Shown here: positions 8,103 through 47,441 of the stretch, one piece after another
Layout: each line of letters starts with the position of its first letter
How positions within the stretch are numbered: position 1 is the stretch's first letter
Origin: Candidatus Levyibacteriota bacterium
GTDB taxonomy: Bacteria > Patescibacteriota > Microgenomatia > Levybacterales > UBA12049
Direction of reading: 5' to 3'
Assembly: GCA_016186625.1 (NCBI GenBank)
Contig: JACPLG010000003.1
Span: 9,645 to 73,644, forward strand
Length of the DNA: 64,000 nt
Notes under the pieces: model-generated
What the model was told of the DNA's origin: nothing
Databases searched by the model: none
The model's input: the letters and a program-made list of their open reading frames with translations, nothing else
Translations under genes and position numbers: made by a program

Positions 8103-8564
8103 TTAATACAGAGGCAAATGACACCCACAAGAGGCAAATGACACCCACAAAATATACGGAAGCAAAAGATAGGATGCGCTCCTTGAAATAAGAAAAAAGG
8201 CCCGGATTGTCAGAAAAATCATTACCCATAAAGCTATAATATTTACTAATCCAAAAAGAGGGTTTTGAAATCCGAAAAACACAATGGACCATGAAGTGTT
8301 AAGAAACAATTGGATAAGAAACAGCTTGATTGCCCGCTCTTTATTTTTTGAACCTTTGGAAGTCCAAATTAGATAAAATGAGATTCCCATCAGGATATAA
8401 AGAGCTGTCCAGACCGGACCGAATAGAAAATCCGGAGGACTGAATGAGGGTTTCTCAAGGGTGCGGTACCAGGAATCAATTGAAGAAATAGTAAAATATG
8501 ATCCTATTCCTCCTGCTATAAATGGCAGGGCAAGAGAAATAATTAACTTTGGGAAACTCTTCAC
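8103..8564 (-). CDS. tspO: TspO/MBR family tryptophan-rich sensory protein, 3' end frameshifted by a 20-bp tandem duplication
   Basis: WYRTLEKPSFSPPDFLFGPVWTALYILMG matches the TspO signature. The authentic C-terminus (VSFASVLNFAIVVLN) is in the other frame (ORF 8077..8292). Confidence 0.65.
   Translation of the reverse strand: MKSFPKLIISLALPFIAGGIGSYFTISSIDSWYRTLEKPSFSPPDFLFGPVWTALYILMGISFYLIWTSKGSKNKERAIKLFLIQLFLNTSWSIVFFGFQNPLFGLVNIIALWVMIFLTIRAFFLISRSASYLLLPYILWVSFASCGCHLPLY
8111..8150. repeat. Exact tandem duplication of the 20-bp unit GAGGCAAATGACACCCACAA (2 copies)
   Basis: Read directly: 8111-8130 equals 8131-8150. Confidence 0.9.
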
Positions 8565-8636
8565 AAATTAAGTATAGCAATTTTCCCCAAATTTCTCTTT
8601 GATTTGATTCTAAAATTGGTGTATTATATTCACACT

Positions 8637-8846
8637 ATGCCTCATATAATTGAGCAAAACCCAAAGATTTTAAGCGGACAACCGGTCATTAGGAACACAA
8701 GAATTCCTGTAGCTAGAGTATTGGCTCTAATTGGAATGGGATATACACTTCCCAAATTAAAAAGAGAACTTCCGGACCTAAATAAACTAACAAAGAAAGA
8801 TCTCGCAGATATATTTTTCCACTATTCCCAACTTGCGTCAAAGTAA
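8637..8846 (+). CDS. DUF433 domain protein (antitoxin-like), orphan
   Basis: ILSGQPVIRNTRIPVARVLALIGMGYTLPKLKRELPDLNKLTKKDLADIFFHY matches the DUF433 pattern (GG.P.I.GTRI.V..VL......G.S.EEI...YP.L...DI..AL.Y). No DUF5615/PIN partner is adjacent. Start taken at the internal M (the track ORF begins at 8604). Confidence 0.55.
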   Translation: MPHIIEQNPKILSGQPVIRNTRIPVARVLALIGMGYTLPKLKRELPDLNKLTKKDLADIFFHYSQLASK

Positions 8847-8883
8847 ATAATCCTGATGATTTCTGGGGAAAGGCGATAAAAAT

Positions 8884-9303
8884 TTAATTTGGTCTTTGGG
8901 GATTTTGGGCAGGTGCTACAAATACATCTACCTCAATTCCGGAAGGATCCTCCGGAGCTTCAAGCAATTCAATACTAAGACCTTCATCAGGTGCTGAATA
9001 TAAACCAATCAGGTCTTCATGGGGACGTCTTGGATTCATTATGAAATCAATTGTAGGCTGTCTTCCTAATGCTTGACTAATTTGTATGATGCCTCTCTCT
9101 ATTTTCCCGTCGTCAGCAACCATCATTAATTCTCCGAATGTGTAAAGAGGTGTTGACTCATCAAGATCATCCATCTTATCAACCTCTTCATCGTCAAGAT
9201 ATCTTACAATTATTAATTGTTTGTTTCCCTCCGGTGACTTGATACCGTGTTGTTCAAAAAATACATATTCTTTCTCCTTATACATAATGCGGCAATTATA
9301 CAT
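8884..9303 (-). CDS. Hypothetical acidic protein (139 aa)
   Basis: ORF track. Confidence 0.4.
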   Translation of the reverse strand: MYNCRIMYKEKEYVFFEQHGIKSPEGNKQLIIVRYLDDEEVDKMDDLDESTPLYTFGELMMVADDGKIERGIIQISQALGRQPTIDFIMNPRRPHEDLIGLYSAPDEGLSIELLEAPEDPSGIEVDVFVAPAQNPQRPN

Positions 9304-9323
9304 CAGGAGGCCTTCTTTGCAAA

Positions 9324-9866
9324 TTATTCCTCTGGCTCTGGTGTTGGGGTTTCCTCTTCCGGACTAGGAGTGGGGGTTTCTTTGGGCTTAATTTCCAAAA
9401 GTTCTACCTCAAATTGGATTGGAGTGTTGGGAGGAATTGGTCCTGCTCCCCTTTCTCCGTAAGCCAAGTTTGAGGGAATTAAAATTCTTCTTTTGCCTCC
9501 CAATTTCATGCCCACAACTCCCTGCTCAAATCCCGGTATAACTTGTCCTGCGCCTACCGTAAGCTCAAACGGCTCCCTCCTCTCATATGAGCTGTCAAAG
9601 GAGCGCCCGTCCAAAAACGCTCCTATATAATGAACCGCAATTGTGTCTCCCGCCTCAACCTGGGCCGAGCCGCTTCCCACCTTAGTATCCTGAAATTGGA
9701 GCTGGGTTACATTTGGCGGTGGAGTTGGCGCAGGCGAAGTATTTAAATTAAAATCCAGAGGATTTTCTTCAATAGAAGGCGCTTTATTTGATTGAAATAC
9801 AAGAAGAATCATTAGAAGTATAAGAAGAGCAAATCCGGCTGCGCCAATTATGTATTTATTTTCCAC
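9324..9866 (-). CDS. FKBP-type peptidyl-prolyl cis-trans isomerase with N-terminal membrane anchor and Pro/Thr-rich linker
   Basis: GDTIAVHYIGAFLDGRSFDSS...FELTVGAGQVIPGFEQGVVGMKLGGKRRILIPSNLAYGERG...FEVELLEI is a canonical FKBP domain. Confidence 0.8.
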   Translation of the reverse strand: MENKYIIGAAGFALLILLMILLVFQSNKAPSIEENPLDFNLNTSPAPTPPPNVTQLQFQDTKVGSGSAQVEAGDTIAVHYIGAFLDGRSFDSSYERREPFELTVGAGQVIPGFEQGVVGMKLGGKRRILIPSNLAYGERGAGPIPPNTPIQFEVELLEIKPKETPTPSPEEETPTPEPEE

Positions 9867-9899
9867 GCCCGTTATTATAGCAAATAAGAGGCTTAGTTC

Positions 9900-10166
9900 T
9901 TAGGCTGTTTTTGTAACCGGTCTTTTAACGCTGCGTTCTAATTTAAGCTGCCTGAGTTTTTCTCTTTTTAGTGTCTCTTCAAGAAGCGTCTTTTCAAATT
10001 CTTCTTGACACTCTCTATTTGTGCAAACTATTTGGCTATGATAAAGAATCATAAACCCGTTAGGGTTTTGGATTTTTTCTATCCACGTTTTTGATATTTT
10101 CCTTTTGCTGTTACACCTTTCACAGAGAATATCTTCATCTGGAAGTGAATTACCTATTTTTGGCAT
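9900..10166 (-). CDS. Hypothetical Cys-containing (Zn-ribbon-like) small protein
   Basis: ORF track; CERC...CTNREC cysteine pairs. Confidence 0.4.
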   Translation of the reverse strand: MPKIGNSLPDEDILCERCNSKRKISKTWIEKIQNPNGFMILYHSQIVCTNRECQEEFEKTLLEETLKREKLRQLKLERSVKRPVTKTA

Positions 10167-10185
10167 AGGCTAGTTTCCCATTGAT

Positions 10186-10509
10186 TTAATATCTATTTCT
10201 AGAACTCTTATTATCTCTTCTTTGGAAATTATTTCTCTGTCCGCGCCTTTGGCCAAACTCTTCTCTTGGACGCGCCTCTTTGACAACAATTGTTCTATTA
10301 TCAAGTGTTGAGCCATTAAGCTTATCCATGGCGAGCCTTGCTTCTTCATCAGTTGACATCTCTACAAAACCAAAACCTTTGCTTTGATTTGTATATTTGT
10401 CCATTATGACCTGCGCTGATGTGACGGTTCCGACTTCTGAAAAATGTTTGTTAAGGCTGTCTGATGTTGTATCATACGAAAGTCCTGCTACGAATAAATT
10501 TTTTGCCAT
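10186..10509 (-). CDS. RRM-type RNA-binding protein
   Basis: LFVAGLSYDTT...KGFGFVEM carries RNP2/RNP1 motifs, with a basic Arg-rich tail. Confidence 0.8.
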   Translation of the reverse strand: MAKNLFVAGLSYDTTSDSLNKHFSEVGTVTSAQVIMDKYTNQSKGFGFVEMSTDEEARLAMDKLNGSTLDNRTIVVKEARPREEFGQRRGQRNNFQRRDNKSSRNRY

Positions 10510-39191: not shown

Positions 39192-39533
39192 TTAGAAAGG
39201 TGCTTGGATAAAAGGTATAAAAAGAGTTATAACTGGCCACCACAGAAAAAGAGCCAAGAGGCTCAGTTCCACAAAAATAACAAAAATGAAAATTATCAAA
39301 TCTACAAGGATAAGAATACTTTTTATAAATATTCCCATCCCTATTGAAAAAGCAACAAGACCTTTGCGGTATTCGTTTTTTAATGGCTTAAAAAAAGTTC
39401 TGACCATCAGAGGAAGAGAAAGAATTTGCAAGACTGCGTGATTAACAGATCCAAAATATTTAACAAGTCTAAGAGGCGAATCTATATACCAAAATTTGAT
39501 AAATAAGGTAGGTATGGACAGATACAAATTCAT
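39192..39533 (-). CDS. Small membrane protein
   Basis: ORF track; hydrophobic. Confidence 0.35.
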   Translation of the reverse strand: MNLYLSIPTLFIKFWYIDSPLRLVKYFGSVNHAVLQILSLPLMVRTFFKPLKNEYRKGLVAFSIGMGIFIKSILILVDLIIFIFVIFVELSLLALFLWWPVITLFIPFIQAPF

Positions 39534-41711: not shown

Positions 41712-42277
41712 TTTAATTTTTTCTTAATATACTCTATTGCATCATTTGGAGTATCTGCGAAATAGAATAGATCCTCATCCAACGGATGGCCAAGAGATGA
41801 TTCCAAAAAACCTTCGTCTTTCATTTTTTGGAGTTGAATCTTTAAACCATTATAAAAATTGTCAGTATTTAAAAATATAATTGGTTTATTATGGTGTTTT
41901 GTTTTCTTAAGTTCAATAATTTCAGTTATCTCGTCCAGTGTTCCTATCCCGCCAACCAAGGCAATAATCGCGTTTGACCGCTCAAGCATTGCTGCTTTTC
42001 GCTCGCCCAAAGATTTGGCAATAATCATCTCATCTGCGTCCTTTCTTGCCAAATGCTGAAAAACTCCATGAGATACCCCATGCAATTTTCCTCCGCCATT
42101 CTTCACTTCATCAGCAATTACTTTCATTAGTCCCTCATCCGTTCCTCCCCAGACAAGATGATATTTATTTTTTGCGAGTAATTCTCCAAATTCCGTAGCA
42201 GCCTTTACATACTTTTCATCAACATTTTGTGCAGAGCAAAAAACAGCAATATATTTCATAGTTCTTTTTTTGCCCAA
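41708..42277 (-). CDS. LOG family protein (cytokinin riboside 5'-monophosphate phosphoribohydrolase-like, TIGR00730)
   Basis: VWGGTDEGLMKVIADEV...ERKAAMLERSNAIIALVGGIGTLDEITE is the LOG PGGxGTxxE motif. Confidence 0.8.
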   Translation of the reverse strand: MGKKRTMKYIAVFCSAQNVDEKYVKAATEFGELLAKNKYHLVWGGTDEGLMKVIADEVKNGGGKLHGVSHGVFQHLARKDADEMIIAKSLGERKAAMLERSNAIIALVGGIGTLDEITEIIELKKTKHHNKPIIFLNTDNFYNGLKIQLQKMKDEGFLESSLGHPLDEDLFYFADTPNDAIEYIKKKLK

Positions 42278-42564
42278 TTTTCTACATCTTTTGTAGTTTG
42301 ATTTACCAGAAGCGACGTTAGAACAAAGGTTTTATAACTATGCAATTTCTTAACCTCACTATTTATTTTTTCAAAATTTTCCGCAACAGAATCCATTATT
42401 AATAAGATCTCCTCCGAAGATTTGATTTTCTTCTCCCAAAGAAATGATGAAGAGACAGGAAGTTTTTTTGCGCAGACTATTAATTTTTCCTTAAGAAGAG
42501 TATTGGCAATTTTGTCCGCTTCCTTCTCATTTGCACAAGTCAAAAGAAGAACGATCATTTGCAT
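42256..42564 (-). CDS. cutA: Divalent-cation tolerance protein CutA
   Basis: CutA1 fold signature (LLTCANEKEADKIANTLLKEKLIVCAKK...SSFLWEKKI). Confidence 0.7.
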   Translation of the reverse strand: MQMIVLLLTCANEKEADKIANTLLKEKLIVCAKKLPVSSSFLWEKKIKSSEEILLIMDSVAENFEKINSEVKKLHSYKTFVLTSLLVNQTTKDVENWAKKEL

Positions 42565-42570
42565 GCGCCA

Positions 42571-42576
42571 ATTATA
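42571..42576 (-). promoter_or_regulatory. -10 hexamer TATAAT 6 nt upstream of the cutA ATG (leaderless-type)
   Basis: Minus strand reads tataattggcgcATG. Confidence 0.4.
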
Positions 42577-42623
42577 ACAAAAGTATTTTAGAAAATTTGT
42601 TATAAAGTTTTCTCAGTACAACA

Positions 42624-42728
42624 CTACGCTATAGCATATCATTGTAATTTGATATTTTATGTTTAGATTGATCTAAAACGAGAAAATTAAATCATCACAA
42701 ATTTTGCTCGAGCAAAATTTTCGTGGAG
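42624..42728. repeat. Copy 1 of a ~105-bp direct repeat (about 93% identical to 44110-44213); contains the perfect 22-bp palindrome AAATTTTGCTCGAGCAAAATTT (42699-42720)
   Basis: Aligned by eye: 7 mismatches over ~105 bp; the 49-bp core is identical. Confidence 0.85.
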
Positions 42729-42740
42729 TTAAAGGAGAGT

Positions 42741-43247
42741 TTACCCTCTTATTTTATCTGCAAGCTTTGCTAATTCTTTATCTGGAGCTCTTTTGTAGTC
42801 GTGTGAAGAGATATATCCTTCATATTTTTCAAAATATTTATCTACATTAGATTTAATTTCTTGCCATTTTTTCATATCAGCGGTTCCGTGCATTGGGAAA
42901 AGTTTGGCATGAACATGATCCACTCCAAAACCTTCAAAAATCATTCCAGTTCTACCAACTCCTTCTAATTTATTGTCGAGAAGCCTTCCAACTTTCTGTG
43001 AAGCCAAAACAAGATCAATCAAAACATTTCTAGGTAAATCAAAAGCATAGCTTGCATAATGTTTTTTAGGAATAACAACAGTGAAACCTTTTGTGTTGGG
43101 AAAAATAGAAAGGAAGGCTATATGTTTTTCATCTTCCCAGATTTTATGGGATGGGGCTTCTCCATTTACAATCTTACAAAAAATACAATCTTTCACCTCG
43201 CCAATTATAGCCCTTCGGCTTCGCTCAGGGCAAGCACCCCACTTCAC
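42741..43247 (-). CDS. HIT (histidine triad)-like nucleotide hydrolase, H-x-H-x-K variant; the true start may be the GTG at 43196
   Basis: CIFCKIVNGE...GVDHVHAKLFP is a HIT-like motif with Lys at the third His position. The N-terminal 17 aa of the track ORF come from a GC-rich leader segment. Confidence 0.65.
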   Translation of the reverse strand: MKWGACPERSRRAIIGEVKDCIFCKIVNGEAPSHKIWEDEKHIAFLSIFPNTKGFTVVIPKKHYASYAFDLPRNVLIDLVLASQKVGRLLDNKLEGVGRTGMIFEGFGVDHVHAKLFPMHGTADMKKWQEIKSNVDKYFEKYEGYISSHDYKRAPDKELAKLADKIRG

Positions 43248-43300
43248 TTCGGTTTCACTCAGTGTAAACGCCGAGGGCTACGAGGGGCAGGGGAAGAAAA

Positions 43301-44047
43301 TTATTCGAAGAGCGGATGTCCTGGAAGAATTATCCTATCCCCTGTTTTTAGTTGATTTTTAATCCTAGTATAAGCCGATTGGTTGAGAAATCTAAGACTC
43401 TTGTAAATCATCTCTTGATCAATAGTCTTTCCATTTCTTACATCCATAGCATGATTAATAACTATTGATCCATTAACATCAAGGAATTTTAATTTTTTAG
43501 ACTCCACGTATATATCTTTATGAGTTAGCGGGAATTTACCAGACTCCAGTATCACCAAAGCTCTTGCGGCAAATAAAACAGCTTTTGAAAACTGTATGGA
43601 TGCTGTGACTAAATCATTTTTTCTGGCGGAAAGTAAAGCGCCAAGTGCGTAGGATGTTTCAAAGATAATTACTTCAATTAAATCAGATAGTTTAATTTGA
43701 GGAGACTTTAGCTTTCGTATAATATTTTCTCCTGCAATTGTAATTGATTCTTCAACCAATTCTTTTAAATAAACTGCCTTAGGAAAAGGAGTATCAATTA
43801 TGTACCGCTCAATTTCTTCCAAAACAAACGAGTAAATATTAATATTTGGATTGTTGTGAAGTTGGGCTAGCTTAATACGCTCCCATCTCTTAGTTTTACT
43901 AAAAATAACTCCGACTTCATAATCACTGTCCTCTTTAAAATCATCTCTGGCTCTAGATCCATAAACAAAAATTGAAACAGGCTTAGCTTCTTTCTCAATT
44001 TTATCAATTACAGAAAGTATATCTTTTGGAAAATCTGTTTTTTTCAT
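43301..44047 (-). CDS. Pol-beta superfamily nucleotidyltransferase (MNT-like) with C-terminal helical domain
   Basis: IFVYGSRARDDFKEDSDYEVGVIF carries the GS...D.D NTase motif. Start placed at the ATG directly after TATAATTGGCGA; the track ORF extends to 44128 through the repeat. Confidence 0.65.
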   Translation of the reverse strand: MKKTDFPKDILSVIDKIEKEAKPVSIFVYGSRARDDFKEDSDYEVGVIFSKTKRWERIKLAQLHNNPNINIYSFVLEEIERYIIDTPFPKAVYLKELVEESITIAGENIIRKLKSPQIKLSDLIEVIIFETSYALGALLSARKNDLVTASIQFSKAVLFAARALVILESGKFPLTHKDIYVESKKLKFLDVNGSIVINHAMDVRNGKTIDQEMIYKSLRFLNQSAYTRIKNQLKTGDRIILPGHPLFE

Positions 44048-44053
44048 TCGCCA

Positions 44054-44059
44054 ATTATA
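44054..44059 (-). promoter_or_regulatory. -10 hexamer TATAAT 6 nt upstream of the nucleotidyltransferase ATG (leaderless-type); same architecture as cutA
   Basis: Minus strand reads tataattggcgaATG. Confidence 0.4.
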
Positions 44060-44109
44060 GCAGAAGTGCTTGAAACATTTGTCTTGGGAGACTTTCTCTT
44101 GGTACAAGC

Positions 44110-44213
44110 CTACGCTATAGCGTATCATTGTAATTTTATATTTTATGTTCAGGTGGTCTAAAACGAGAAAATTAAATCATCACAAATTTTGCTCGAGCAA
44201 AATTTGCGTGGAG
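44110..44213. repeat. Copy 2 of the ~105-bp direct repeat; palindrome at 44184-44205
   Basis: See copy 1. Confidence 0.85.
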
Positions 44214-44501
44214 GGAGAATAGATTTATTAAATACTTCAATACTTTAAAGTAATGAAGTATTCCATTTATAAGTTCCTTTTTTGTGGAATGGTTAAGCGG
44301 TATAATATAGGTATGGATTTACTAAAACCAATTAAAGTCGATGGTGTGCACCCCAGGTTTACACCCCGGGGGTGGATTTTCCTTTACACCCTAGGATTGA
44401 TAATATAGAAAGAATTAGAACCAGCCTTTTCTTTTCGCCCTCAAACTTTCTGAATCTTCCTTCCCACTTGGAATGTGGGAAGGTAGTTTTGAGTACTAGT
44501 A

Positions 44502-45389
44502 CTAGAACCAGCTGCGTTTTTTAGAGTTATCAAACTCGCGAAGCAATTCTTTTTGGCGGGAGGAAAGATTTTTAGGAACTGTAACTTTTATTTGGACATA
44601 GTGATCTCCTTTGCCAGTTCCGCGAACATGAGAAATTCCTTTTTGGCTCAATCGAATAACTGTATTTGGCTGTGTCCCTCCCGGTATCCTAAGTTTTACT
44701 TCCCCCTCAACTGTTTCAACATTAATCTCAGTCCCCAAGGCAGCCTGGGCAAAACTAATTTCCTCTTCTGTAACAACATCGTATCCTTCTCTTCTAAACT
44801 TAGAATGGGGACGAACTTCAATAAGAACATCATAATCTCCAAAACGGACACGCGAACCATTATCAACTCCGGGTGGAATTTTTACAGTTTGGTTTTTACC
44901 TTCAACAGAAATTCTCTTCGTCACCCCTTTTACAGCTTCCATAAAATCGATTTGCAAAGAGTAGACAGGGCGTCTTTGTGCCCGGCCAAAAGGTGAAGCG
45001 CCGCCAAAGAATTGTTCGAATATTTCAAACGGGTCTGAAAACCCGCCAAAGTCAAACCCGCCGCCGTTACCCGATGTTGTGTAAGTGTATGTAAACGGCC
45101 CGTATTGACCTGTTTGCGTTCCACCAAAAGGACCACCAGCTCCAAAAGGTCCTTGACCTGCTCCTTGTTCAAATGCGGCGTGACCAAACTGATCATAGGC
45201 TTGTCTTTTTTGCGGATCCGACAAAACCTCATAGGCTTTTGTTACCTCTTTAAATTTTTCCTCCGAGGCTTTATCCCCTTTATTCCTGTCAGGATGATGC
45301 TGCAGGGCAAGCTTACGATATGCTTTTTTTATTTCAACATCCGTTGCGCTTTTTGTAATTCCTAAAACTTGATAATAATCTTTGTTCAT
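44502..45389 (-). CDS. dnaJ: DnaJ-class co-chaperone (J domain, G/F-rich, C-terminal domains; no Cys-rich zinc finger, CbpA-like)
   Basis: DYYQVLGITKSATDVEIKKAYRKLALQHHPDRN (J domain with HPD). Confidence 0.8.
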   Translation of the reverse strand: MNKDYYQVLGITKSATDVEIKKAYRKLALQHHPDRNKGDKASEEKFKEVTKAYEVLSDPQKRQAYDQFGHAAFEQGAGQGPFGAGGPFGGTQTGQYGPFTYTYTTSGNGGGFDFGGFSDPFEIFEQFFGGASPFGRAQRRPVYSLQIDFMEAVKGVTKRISVEGKNQTVKIPPGVDNGSRVRFGDYDVLIEVRPHSKFRREGYDVVTEEEISFAQAALGTEINVETVEGEVKLRIPGGTQPNTVIRLSQKGISHVRGTGKGDHYVQIKVTVPKNLSSRQKELLREFDNSKKRSWF

Positions 45390-45532
45390 AAATTAGTTAT
45401 TAGATACTAGTTAATAGATATTAGTCTCACCGCTAATTATATAATACTTGCGCGGGAAGCTGGTGAAATTTTCGCAGGACGACAAGCGAATTGCGTGTCC
45501 AAGAAAATTTTACTAGCGACCTCAGCGCTTTC

Positions 45533-47338
45533 TCATTTCACAGTGACGCTTTTTGCTAAATTTCTTGGTTTATCCGGATCTTTAATACCACGAGAAAGTG
45601 CCAGATAATAAGCAAATAGCTGCGAAATTACGACTTGCGGAATAATTGTTGCTTCTGTAATATCGCGTGTTTGTAAAAATCTGTCAAACACATCACTTTT
45701 TCGCGGTCCAATGCCAATAATAAATCCTCCCCGTGCCTTAACTTCTTGCGCATTTGAAATAATATCGTCAAACGTCTCGTCATTTGGCGCAATAATGAAA
45801 ACCGGGGTACCTTTTTCAATAAGAGCAATTACCCCATGTTTTAATTCTCCACCCGCAAAGCCTTCAGCGTGAACATATGTAGTTTCTTTTATTTTTAAAG
45901 TCGCCTCAAGAGCTGTAGCATAAGACAGCCCGCGGCCTAGTATATAAATATGTTCTTTATTTTTAAACTCCAAGGCAAGCTTTTTGATATTTTTTGTGTA
46001 ATCTTCTTTAAGAATTTCCTCAACGTTTTTTGCTGCGGATAATAATAAGTTTTTGGCTTCTTTTTGTTTTTTAACCAGTGTATATGCTGTTAGAAAAAGA
46101 ACAGATATCATTGCGGTAAAGCTTTTTGTCCCAATAACTGCCTTTTCTGAACCTGCTCCTAACAACACTTTAAAATCTGATTGTCTATATAGTGTAGAAC
46201 CTAACACATTTACCAAAGACGCTACCTTAGATCCTTTTTGTTTTGCTCTATTAACAGGTTCAACAATATCAATTGTTTCTCCACTTTGGGAAATAGGAAT
46301 TACTAAGCTTTTTGGAGTTAAATAATTCTCAAGGTAATTAAACTCAGAACCAATTGAAAAATTTACGTGTCTTTTAGCAATACTTGAAAAAAGATAGGTA
46401 CCAAAAAGCCCAGCGTAAGAGGCAGTTCCACAGCCTAATAAAAATGTACCATATGATTCTTTTATAAGTTTCGCAAGCTTCTTTGTTTGATCGCTGTAAT
46501 TTAATGCGATATTACTGATAACCTGAGGTTGTTCATGGATTTCTTTTAACAAAAAATGCTCAAATCTACCTTTGATTGCGTCTTCAAACTTCCAGTCTAA
46601 AGTATTTACCGCTGGCTCAAGCTCTTCACCTTCTGGCAATTTTGTGAGTCTCAACTTTTTACCCAACATTACCATCTGATTGTCCTCGAGAAATACTATT
46701 TTATTCGTATGCTTTAGTATTCCTATAGCATCAGATGCAACATAAAATTCATTTTCTGAAACGCCAATTATTAAAGGGGAACCAGTTTTTGCAGCAGCAA
46801 TTTCATTTGTATCAGCGTTTATTGCAACAATCGCATTGAGTCCTTTGATTTGGTTAAACGCCAACCTAAACGCCTCAGTAAATCCTTTGCCTTGCAAGGT
46901 CTCACCTTTTGAGGCTAAATATTCCTCGATGAGGTGTGGAAATACTTCAGTATCGGTCTCGGAGAGAAAACTGTGTCCTTTTTTTAATAAAACTTCTTTT
47001 AACTCCTGATAATTCTCGATTATTCCGTTATGAACTACTGCAATATTTTTGGTGCAGTCCAAATGAGGGTGAGAATTTTCTTGCGTTACTCCTCCATGCG
47101 TTGCCCAGCGGGTATGACCGATTCCGAGGGCGCTTTGGGGTAAGTCAACTTTCGCATCCCCAATCTTCCCAACATGCTTTTCAACGGCTAAGAAACTTTT
47201 GACTTTTGCATTTTGACTTTTGACTTTCGTTGCTATTCCCCAGGAATCATAACCGCGATACTCCAAAAGACGAAGTCCTTCAAGAATCATTCCTGCTGCA
47301 TTTGTCTTTTTCCCAACGTAACCAAAAATCCCACACAT
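45533..47338 (-). CDS. glmS: Glutamine--fructose-6-phosphate aminotransferase
   Basis: MCGIFGYVG N-terminal nucleophile Cys; SIS domains; C-terminal ...KSVTVK. Start set at the Met before the Cys. Confidence 0.9.
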   Translation of the reverse strand: MCGIFGYVGKKTNAAGMILEGLRLLEYRGYDSWGIATKVKSQNAKVKSFLAVEKHVGKIGDAKVDLPQSALGIGHTRWATHGGVTQENSHPHLDCTKNIAVVHNGIIENYQELKEVLLKKGHSFLSETDTEVFPHLIEEYLASKGETLQGKGFTEAFRLAFNQIKGLNAIVAINADTNEIAAAKTGSPLIIGVSENEFYVASDAIGILKHTNKIVFLEDNQMVMLGKKLRLTKLPEGEELEPAVNTLDWKFEDAIKGRFEHFLLKEIHEQPQVISNIALNYSDQTKKLAKLIKESYGTFLLGCGTASYAGLFGTYLFSSIAKRHVNFSIGSEFNYLENYLTPKSLVIPISQSGETIDIVEPVNRAKQKGSKVASLVNVLGSTLYRQSDFKVLLGAGSEKAVIGTKSFTAMISVLFLTAYTLVKKQKEAKNLLLSAAKNVEEILKEDYTKNIKKLALEFKNKEHIYILGRGLSYATALEATLKIKETTYVHAEGFAGGELKHGVIALIEKGTPVFIIAPNDETFDDIISNAQEVKARGGFIIGIGPRKSDVFDRFLQTRDITEATIIPQVVISQLFAYYLALSRGIKDPDKPRNLAKSVTVK

Positions 47339-47441
47339 AAAACTAGCTACTAGCAACTAGCCATTAGCTACTAGTTTCGACATTATATAATAAAAACCGC
47401 TCCCCGCGGTCATTTTTTAGATTTTATCTTTAATTTTTTAT

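Follow-up and report, generated by a model that had tools for sequence, protein, structure and literature searches.

Integron cassettes are single-gene units that are swapped at a fixed chromosomal site, with a short conserved sequence at each boundary. Small intergenic elements of the MITE (miniature inverted-repeat transposable element) type, e.g., the Correia elements of Neisseria and RUP of pneumococcus, are non-coding and hairpin-rich, with a length of about 100-150 nt and short target-like flanking duplications; they are found just upstream of promoters and are able to alter transcription. In Actinobacteria and Deinococcus, leaderless genes have been described whose -10 box lies some 6-8 nt 5' of the start codon. 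The locus considered here has likenesses to each of these. It lies in 64 kb of DNA (64,000 nt, referred to below as the window) from a Candidatus Levyibacteriota bacterium (contig JACPLG010000003.1, positions 9,645 to 73,644) and contains a nucleotidyltransferase (NTase) gene, a HIT-family gene and two copies of a direct repeat, here called R.

As with integron cassettes, single-gene units are swapped at a fixed site with a short conserved sequence at each boundary. That boundary, however, is a promoter at the 5' end of the gene and not an attC site at the 3' end, each cassette has its own promoter, and no integrase was detected. R resembles MITEs in length, in its non-coding, intergenic and hairpin-rich character, in its short target-like flanks and in its position just upstream of promoters. 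In contrast to MITEs it has no terminal inverted repeats, only two copies of it are known, and no cognate transposase or related family was found in the collections searched. As in the leaderless genes of Actinobacteria and Deinococcus, about a quarter of the genes have the form TAnAAT-N4-9-start and no Shine-Dalgarno sequence. Here neighbouring accessory genes have in common a much longer invariant sequence, CTGCTATAATTGGCG, which also falls at the edges of exchanged DNA; leaderlessness is in this case read from the sequence only.

The reading preferred here, held with evenly balanced confidence, is that of a hotspot of cassette exchange, with NTase and HIT as independent cassettes under promoters of their own and R as an orphan insertion-like element at two paralogous junctions. 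In such a hotspot, which would extend from the dnaK operon to cutA, single genes would be gained, lost and swapped, and each incoming gene would bring, or land behind, a lineage-specific extended -10 promoter of the form (C)TGCTATAATTGGCG-N-ATG/GTG. The NTase and HIT genes would be two separate arrivals that are neighbours only in the window genome. R would be a discrete non-coding element of about 120 nt, the 105-nt repeat being its well-conserved core, and would have entered the two junctions separately, at points offset by 4 nt, much as a small non-autonomous mobile element does. Directly observed are the anatomy of the locus, its comparison with relatives and the contrast in synonymous divergence (dS).

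The genes of the 42-45 kb locus are on the minus strand throughout. In the reading direction they are dnaJ, NTase, HIT, cutA, LOG, DHOase and DHODH, and the features on which the argument turns are these.

44502-45389, minus strand: dnaJ
44093-44213, minus strand: repeat R copy 2 (core, 121 nt), 5' of the NTase promoter
43301-44047, minus strand: NTase gene, 248 aa, Pol-beta-type, two-domain
42741-43196, minus strand: HIT-family gene, 151 codons, GTG start, motif H-V-H-A-K
42609-42728, minus strand: repeat R copy 1 (120-nt core), after the HIT stop codon and before the cutA promoter
42256-42564, minus strand: cutA (CutA1), first conserved gene past the variable region

The spacers between dnaJ and NTase, NTase and HIT, and HIT and cutA measure 454, 104 (GC-rich) and 176 nt. 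The rest of the window is core chromosome, with genes for AlaRS, FtsK, RNase J, PNPase, IF-2, NusA, ClpB and MetRS.

The closest relative that bears the NTase is L001, where the protein has 92% amino acid identity. Gene order in that relative is hrcA-grpE-dnaK-dnaJ-NTase-GNAT(reversed)-isochorismatase-hydrolase-cutA-LOG-DHOase-DHODH. The genes are 18 nt apart, and those of the variable stretch are each preceded by (C)TGCTATAATTGG(CG/CC)-N-ATG/GTG. Neither a HIT gene nor repeat R is present in the L001 locus. When the DNA of the two genomes is compared, the flanking genes are 75-77% identical, against 93% for a 769-nt block, 44063-43295. On its 5' side this block begins where the promoter motif begins, and on its 3' side it ends 6 nt beyond the NTase stop codon. 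Values of dS between the window and L001 are as follows.

43295-44063, minus strand: NTase cassette, 769 bp, 93% nucleotide identity to the L001 copy, dS 0.20
Upstream genes: dnaK 1.25; dnaJ saturated
Downstream genes: cutA 1.04; LOG 1.56; DHOase 1.16; DHODH 0.94

With a dS of 0.20 for NTase and at least 0.94 for the flanks, it follows that the NTase cassette alone was recently exchanged. The original prediction, made from the window sequence, had supposed that the two genes were inserted or duplicated as a unit. This does not fit the restriction of recent exchange to the 769-bp cassette, nor the different 5-nt flanks of the two R copies.

NTase genes were found in five more contexts (L005/L006, L007, L026, L028 and L029), all of them different and all lacking a HIT gene. 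NTase and HIT stand side by side in 0 of the 6 NTase contexts and 0 of the 3 HIT contexts, and these HIT contexts have neither an NTase nor R-like DNA. Since none of the nine contexts has the pairing, the adjacency seen in the window is a one-off. In L005/L006 the NTase cassette follows rpsJ, an unrelated context, and has CTGCTATAATTGCCCC on either side. The cassette is identical in these two, and the sequences diverge completely 18 nt past the 3' CTGCTATAATTGCCCC (compared over L005 6747-6790 and L006 1257-1300), which suggests strain-level variation right at the cassette edge.

A second gene of the region, glmS (45533-47338), lies between dnaK and dnaJ in the window; in L001 dnaK and dnaJ are adjacent. 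On each side of the gene is a copy of ATTATATAAT..CG (45426-45445 and 47381-47391, minus strand) with a related AACTAGTA.CTAAT leader, against one copy in L001. Flanking by a duplicated promoter is the same pattern as that of the NTase insertion.

The spacers themselves contain further sequence of interest.

44299-44346, plus strand: remnant of a GNAT acetyltransferase gene (5' end and upstream DNA), 87.5% identical over 48 nt to L001 7285-7332
43210-43294, minus strand: GC-rich insert of about 85 nt, from the NTase stop to the HIT promoter, missing at the matching L001 junction

The GNAT gene is whole in L001, and the remnant covers its first 11 or so codons (MDLLKPIKVDG) as well as DNA upstream of them. 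Its presence identifies the dnaJ-NTase spacer as debris of earlier cassettes. The GC-rich insert has about 60% GC in a genome of 37% GC and a long-range stem formed by GCCCTCGGC...GCCGAAGGGC; it has no second copy in the window and no Rfam match. Another segment of 87 nt follows the dnaJ stop (44416-44512). It contains a strong hairpin, CCTTCCCAC...GTGGGAAGG, and has a 10-nt direct repeat, GCTGGTTCTA, on either side, the distal copy of which resembles an old dnaJ 3' end together with a decayed promoter. This segment looks like a small insertion with a target duplication. Five Logan contigs of 0.9-1.2 kb match the identical DnaJ and are 100% identical to the window. None extends beyond 44233, and three of the five (L098-L100) terminate at or in the hairpins and palindromes 3' of dnaJ.

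The promoter motif TATAATTGGCG occurs exactly three times in the 64 kb.

42566-42576, minus strand: TATAATTGGCG, 6 nt 5' of the cutA ATG
43199-43209, minus strand: TATAATTGGCG, 7 nt 5' of the HIT GTG
44049-44059, minus strand: TATAATTGGCG (CTGCTATAATTGGCGAATG), 6 nt 5' of the NTase ATG

The TATAAT-N6-ATG arrangement originally reported before cutA and NTase is thus present, with a spacing of 6 or 7; the third site, before HIT, had been missed. TAnAAT followed at 4-9 nt by a start occurs at 15 of the 61 gene starts in the window as compared to 33 of 1624 ATG triplets (2%). With such a fraction, leaderless-type starts are evidently a habit of the window genome and of relatives such as L028. From the -10-to-start spacing alone, mRNAs from the locus should be leaderless. 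The long form TGCTATAATTGGCG is found at every gene junction of the hotspot, that of L001 included, and in the DNA compared it is restricted to the hotspot in the window and the L001 group. Exact TGCTATAATTGGCGNATG gave 65 single matches in GTDB representative genomes, in unrelated taxa and none in Levybacteria, for an estimated chance expectation of about 70. Matches at this chance level mean that the long motif is private to the clade, and the concern that it might be a ubiquitous promoter sequence falls away for this form. The proposal of duplicated leaderless promoter cassettes keeps its first half, the leaderless type; the motif also occurs at junctions that have no repeat, and as judged from this distribution it is a shared cassette junction and was not co-duplicated with the 105-nt repeat.

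Arrays of this type are not confined to the window. In the Shapirobacteria relative L028, beside an NTase homologue, a run of small genes at 5835-10417 (hypothetical, Exo_endo_phos, NUDIX, methyltransferase, hypothetical, NUDIX) is another array of self-promoted leaderless-type genes, five of the six having, 6 nt ahead of the start codon, a G(G/T)(G/A)TAAAAT or GGTATAAT box of their own. Many 5' leaders that have no Shine-Dalgarno sequence consist of tandem 7-nt units, often containing TAG. They occur upstream of the starts at 39533, 29728, 35236 and 55595 in the window and at 1645-1684 in L001. The units include TAGCGTA TAGCGTT TAGGGTG TAG, TAGAGAC TAGAGAC TAG, CGATATT CGATATT, CTAGACG CTAGACG and, in L001, repeated TTAGGAT.

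Repeat R sits about 45 nt upstream of a promoter at two junctions, from HIT to cutA and from the debris to NTase. The original prediction of two direct repeats of about 93% identity flanking the two-gene unit is borne out by alignment, with 98 of 105 positions identical between 42624-42728 and 44110-44213. Beyond these positions a weaker homology reaches as far as the start codons (82% over 180 nt). Identities in successive 20-nt blocks are 11, 19, 20, 17, 18, 19, 14, 9 and 14 of 20, which shows a core of 120-121 nt (CTCCACG...GAGAAA) with abrupt ends. The two junctions still align beyond it, with TAAA.TCT to the left and, to the right, about 69% identity across the 32 nt that precede TATAAT. 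The landmarks of R are the following.

42699-42720 (copy 1) and 44184-44205 (copy 2): palindrome P1, AAATTTTGCTCGAGCAAAATTT, perfect, 22 nt, exact in both copies
42625-42638 (copy 1) and 44111-44124 (copy 2, perfect): palindrome P2, TACGCTATAGCGTA, 14 nt (TACGCTATAGCATA)
42730-42734 and partner 42603-42607, minus strand: CTTTA, 5-nt direct repeat flanking copy 1
44214-44218 and partner 44087-44091, minus strand: TCTCC, 5-nt direct repeat flanking copy 2

Read along the coding strand, the first hairpin in R is that of P1. The perfect palindrome that had been noted in each repeat is private to R within the window: P1 has no other site with up to 3 mismatches, none being expected by chance, and P2 none with up to 2. 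With all genes on the minus strand, P1 lies upstream of the promoter in the reading direction, not downstream. Small open reading frames (ORFs) on both strands of R are unconserved between the copies, and on these grounds a coding origin was rejected.

The flanks of the core read CTTTA|A-core-A|CTTTA for copy 1 and TCTCC|core-G|TCTCC for copy 2. An adjacent 5-mer of this kind has a chance probability of 0.0066 per site, or about 4e-5 for both, though the flanks were noticed after the fact. The two flanks of a copy agree with each other but not with those of the other copy, which no single duplication can produce; two insertions 4 nt apart can. A 5-nt duplication for each copy, together with DNA that is only about 69% alike outside, makes two insertions of R the most likely course of events, a mechanism deduced from the two sequences. 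An element of the IS200/IS605 type was considered for the subterminal hairpins and ruled out, the two copies having dissimilar left flanks and duplications on either side.

Several points weigh against the preferred reading as a whole. No inverted pair joins the ends of the core, and inspection of the ends likewise reveals no terminal inverted repeats. R has no recognisable transposase partner: no enzyme that could have moved it is encoded in the window, where no Pfam match to recombinase, transposase or integrase families was obtained among the ORFs scanned. Mobile elements are typically recognised by many copies, and of R only two are known, both lying within 64 kb. BLAST (word size 7) and a covariance model return only these two copies from the window, the covariance model finds no further instance in 10 related loci, and R is absent from L001 and from the DNA adjoining the three HIT homologues. 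An exact 20-mer of R has no match in GTDB representative genomes. A gapped R anchor pattern gave 18 matches in JGI metagenomes, all of which were chance anchors by BLAST, and nothing was found in IMG/VR or in phage and plasmid collections (the latter two by blastn in distant mode); these collection scans needed exact 20-22-mers and would mostly miss copies of R below about 90% identity. The significance of the 5-nt flanks depends on the core boundaries chosen, insertion at paralogous junctions 1.5 kb apart needs a target preference that is only assumed, and leaderless transcription is deduced from spacing.

Duplication of one junction is an alternative that has some appeal but is rather unlikely. 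A single R-spacer-promoter junction of about 185 nt would have been doubled when the NTase and/or HIT segment recombined in, either through a single crossover of the Campbell type by a circular intermediate or through a tandem duplication in which a gene was afterwards replaced, and the repeats would be the scar. This requires neither a transposase nor a recombinase. It agrees with the extension of homology past the core to the start codon, and glmS and the NTase of L005/L006 are likewise bracketed by a duplicated promoter (and leader). The identity is, however, uneven, with 93% in the core, near-random patches beside it and then about 69%, unlike the neutral divergence expected of one duplication. 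The patches next to the core agree within a copy and not between copies, and the recent transfer observed is of the NTase only, not of NTase, HIT and repeat together.

It is also unlikely that selection has kept the two R copies alike as a structured RNA or cis-regulatory module that functions on the coding strand, an idea that is compatible with either origin. R might in that case be a terminator or insulator hairpin followed by a three-way-junction domain, a small RNA (sRNA), or a leader from a second promoter. Both copies have a common architecture on the minus strand, the P1 hairpin and then a closing stem with two inner hairpins, and folding z-scores are -3.3 and -4.0 on that strand as compared to -2.1 and -1.9 on the plus strand. 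The core is far better conserved than the adjoining spacer, and of the 12 columns that differ between the copies, the 3 in predicted pairs are all kept as G-U on the minus strand. RNAalifold, however, gives an unbroken structure of 33 pairs on the plus strand too, so that pairing evidence from two sequences is non-discriminating. Rfam returned nothing at the gathering threshold or at E<=5, and the covariance model search described above was equally unproductive. A terminator scan did not call the AT-rich first hairpin, in which just 2 pairs are G-C and which no U-run immediately follows, and copy 1 has lost the candidate internal -10 (TAAAAT). In the preferred reading, any effect of R on expression is probably passive, and the AT-rich hairpins may lessen read-through from one cassette to the next; a role as insulator, terminator or sRNA is possible.

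The proteins themselves bear on another proposal. Pfam assigns them to Polbeta/NTP_transf_2 (N-terminal 80 aa of the NTase only), HIT and, for the neighbouring gene, CutA1, in agreement with the identities first given. The NTase and DnaJ of the window are each 100% identical to a protein of a Candidatus Levybacteria (CPR/Microgenomates) metagenome-assembled genome. The NTase family consists of 44 proteins whose named sources are only Levybacteria and Shapirobacteria metagenome-assembled genomes. An N-terminal Pol-beta motif, GS...SDYE, is followed by a conserved helical C-terminal half with invariant residues D122, D145, K155, R204 and N222. The AlphaFold model has a pLDDT of 94. In Foldseek the best matches over both domains are AadA, AAD(9), ANT(4') and HalB of the Hailong system (E 1e-5 to 1e-4), with TM up to 0.64 (AadA 5g4a) and sequence identity of 12-16%. 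The predicted structure is accordingly that of an ANT/KNTase-like two-domain fold, Pol-beta plus a helical C-terminal domain, although the low identity distinguishes the NTase from these enzymes and no HalA partner is present.

The NTase had been described as MNT-type with a possibly HEPN-like C-terminus. The C-terminal domain is indeed helical, and the type VII toxin-antitoxin (TA) system MntA/HepT (MNT-HEPN) shares an N-terminal Pol-beta domain with GS...DxE followed by a helical domain. However, HEPN families have no Pfam match in the NTase, no His is seen by inspection 4-6 residues past R204 as the Rx4-6H motif would need, and the protein is one fused chain with no separate HEPN partner. 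The MntA model (NCBIfam NF047752) scores 27.1 bits against a cutoff of 60 and matches residues 18-62 alone. Unlike those of MntA, the neighbours of the NTase are HIT and dnaJ, and the HIT pairing is not conserved.

The HIT protein scores 40.4 bits against PF01230 (gathering threshold 21.5). Aligned to 1y23, its triad reads HVHAK in place of HYHMH; the first two His are kept and the third is Lys, so the protein departs from the H-x-H-x-H-x-x histidine triad of the Hint branch. The family includes more than 5,200 proteins at 75-85% identity across CPR (candidate phyla radiation) bacteria and DPANN archaea. For example, the window protein is 76-81% identical to proteins of Woesearchaeota, Nanoarchaeota and many CPR bacteria (P0053, P0062, P0103, P0125). 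Such identity across domains points either to conservation of an unusual degree or to exchange.

Hydrolysis of nucleotidyl adducts is an established activity of HIT enzymes, and the original prediction saw in the two genes a writer/eraser, TA-like module that had arrived whole, with the repeats as its mark. This is very unlikely. Beyond the chemistry, it draws on a weak resemblance of the NTase N-terminal domain to MntA antitoxins and PADLOC PDC-S09 proteins, and on NUDIX genes near the NTase in two distant relatives. The adjacency, however, is conserved in none of the contexts examined, and L001 retains NTase and cutA with neither HIT nor the repeat, which agrees in part with the arrangement named in advance as telling against a module. 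The HIT gene, under a promoter of its own, encodes a protein that is near-universal in CPR and DPANN and has no PADLOC match; the MntA score is far below its cutoff, and the NTase fold is nearest to small-molecule ANT enzymes. The remaining candidate, that R is an attC site and the locus an integron-like cassette array, has a hairpin-rich sequence of about 120 nt at the 3' end of the HIT cassette and short single-gene cassettes to recommend it, but it was rejected as hardly credible, since RYYYAAC ... GTTRRRY core sites are absent from the ends of both R copies by inspection, no integrase or recombinase was matched by Pfam in the scanned ORFs, the L001 cassettes have no such element between them, and the cassettes carry their own promoters.

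Elsewhere in the window, a DUF3800-IX RNA (Rfam RF02968, 60 bits, E 1e-10) is found at 7169-7240 on the plus strand, directly beside a DUF3800 gene on the opposite strand (7240-7863, minus) that has a TATAAT-N6-ATG start. The region 2386-6699 includes a Type IIG/MmeI-like restriction-modification gene with a leaderless-type start (927 aa) and, close by, an ORF for a small HNH endonuclease and a repressor resembling LexA (Peptidase_S24 + LexA_DNA_bind).

The NTase and HIT genes are ordinary in themselves, and the interest lies in the architecture of the locus. Although the ORFs scanned across the 64 kb gave no recombinase or transposase family, the accessory genes of this reduced CPR genome turn over at a fixed site, and the edges of the exchanged DNA coincide with a shared leaderless-type promoter (NTase dS 0.2 against a background above 0.9). 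A bolder idea, improbable at present, is that in this clade of Levybacteria a leaderless promoter of 16-19 nt, CTGCTATAATTG(GCG/CCC), doubles as a junction for single-gene exchange between genomes, a promoter-bounded and integrase-free counterpart of integron cassettes, and that an element of about 120 nt with 5-nt target duplications and no terminal inverted repeats specifically invades these junctions. If that were true, the orphan repeat R would be the first example of a small element that targets promoter junctions. If the arrangement is general, it would provide CPR bacteria with a simple route for gene flux in which each incoming gene is expressed at once, and it would offer a handle for spotting recently exchanged genes in uncultivated CPR lineages.

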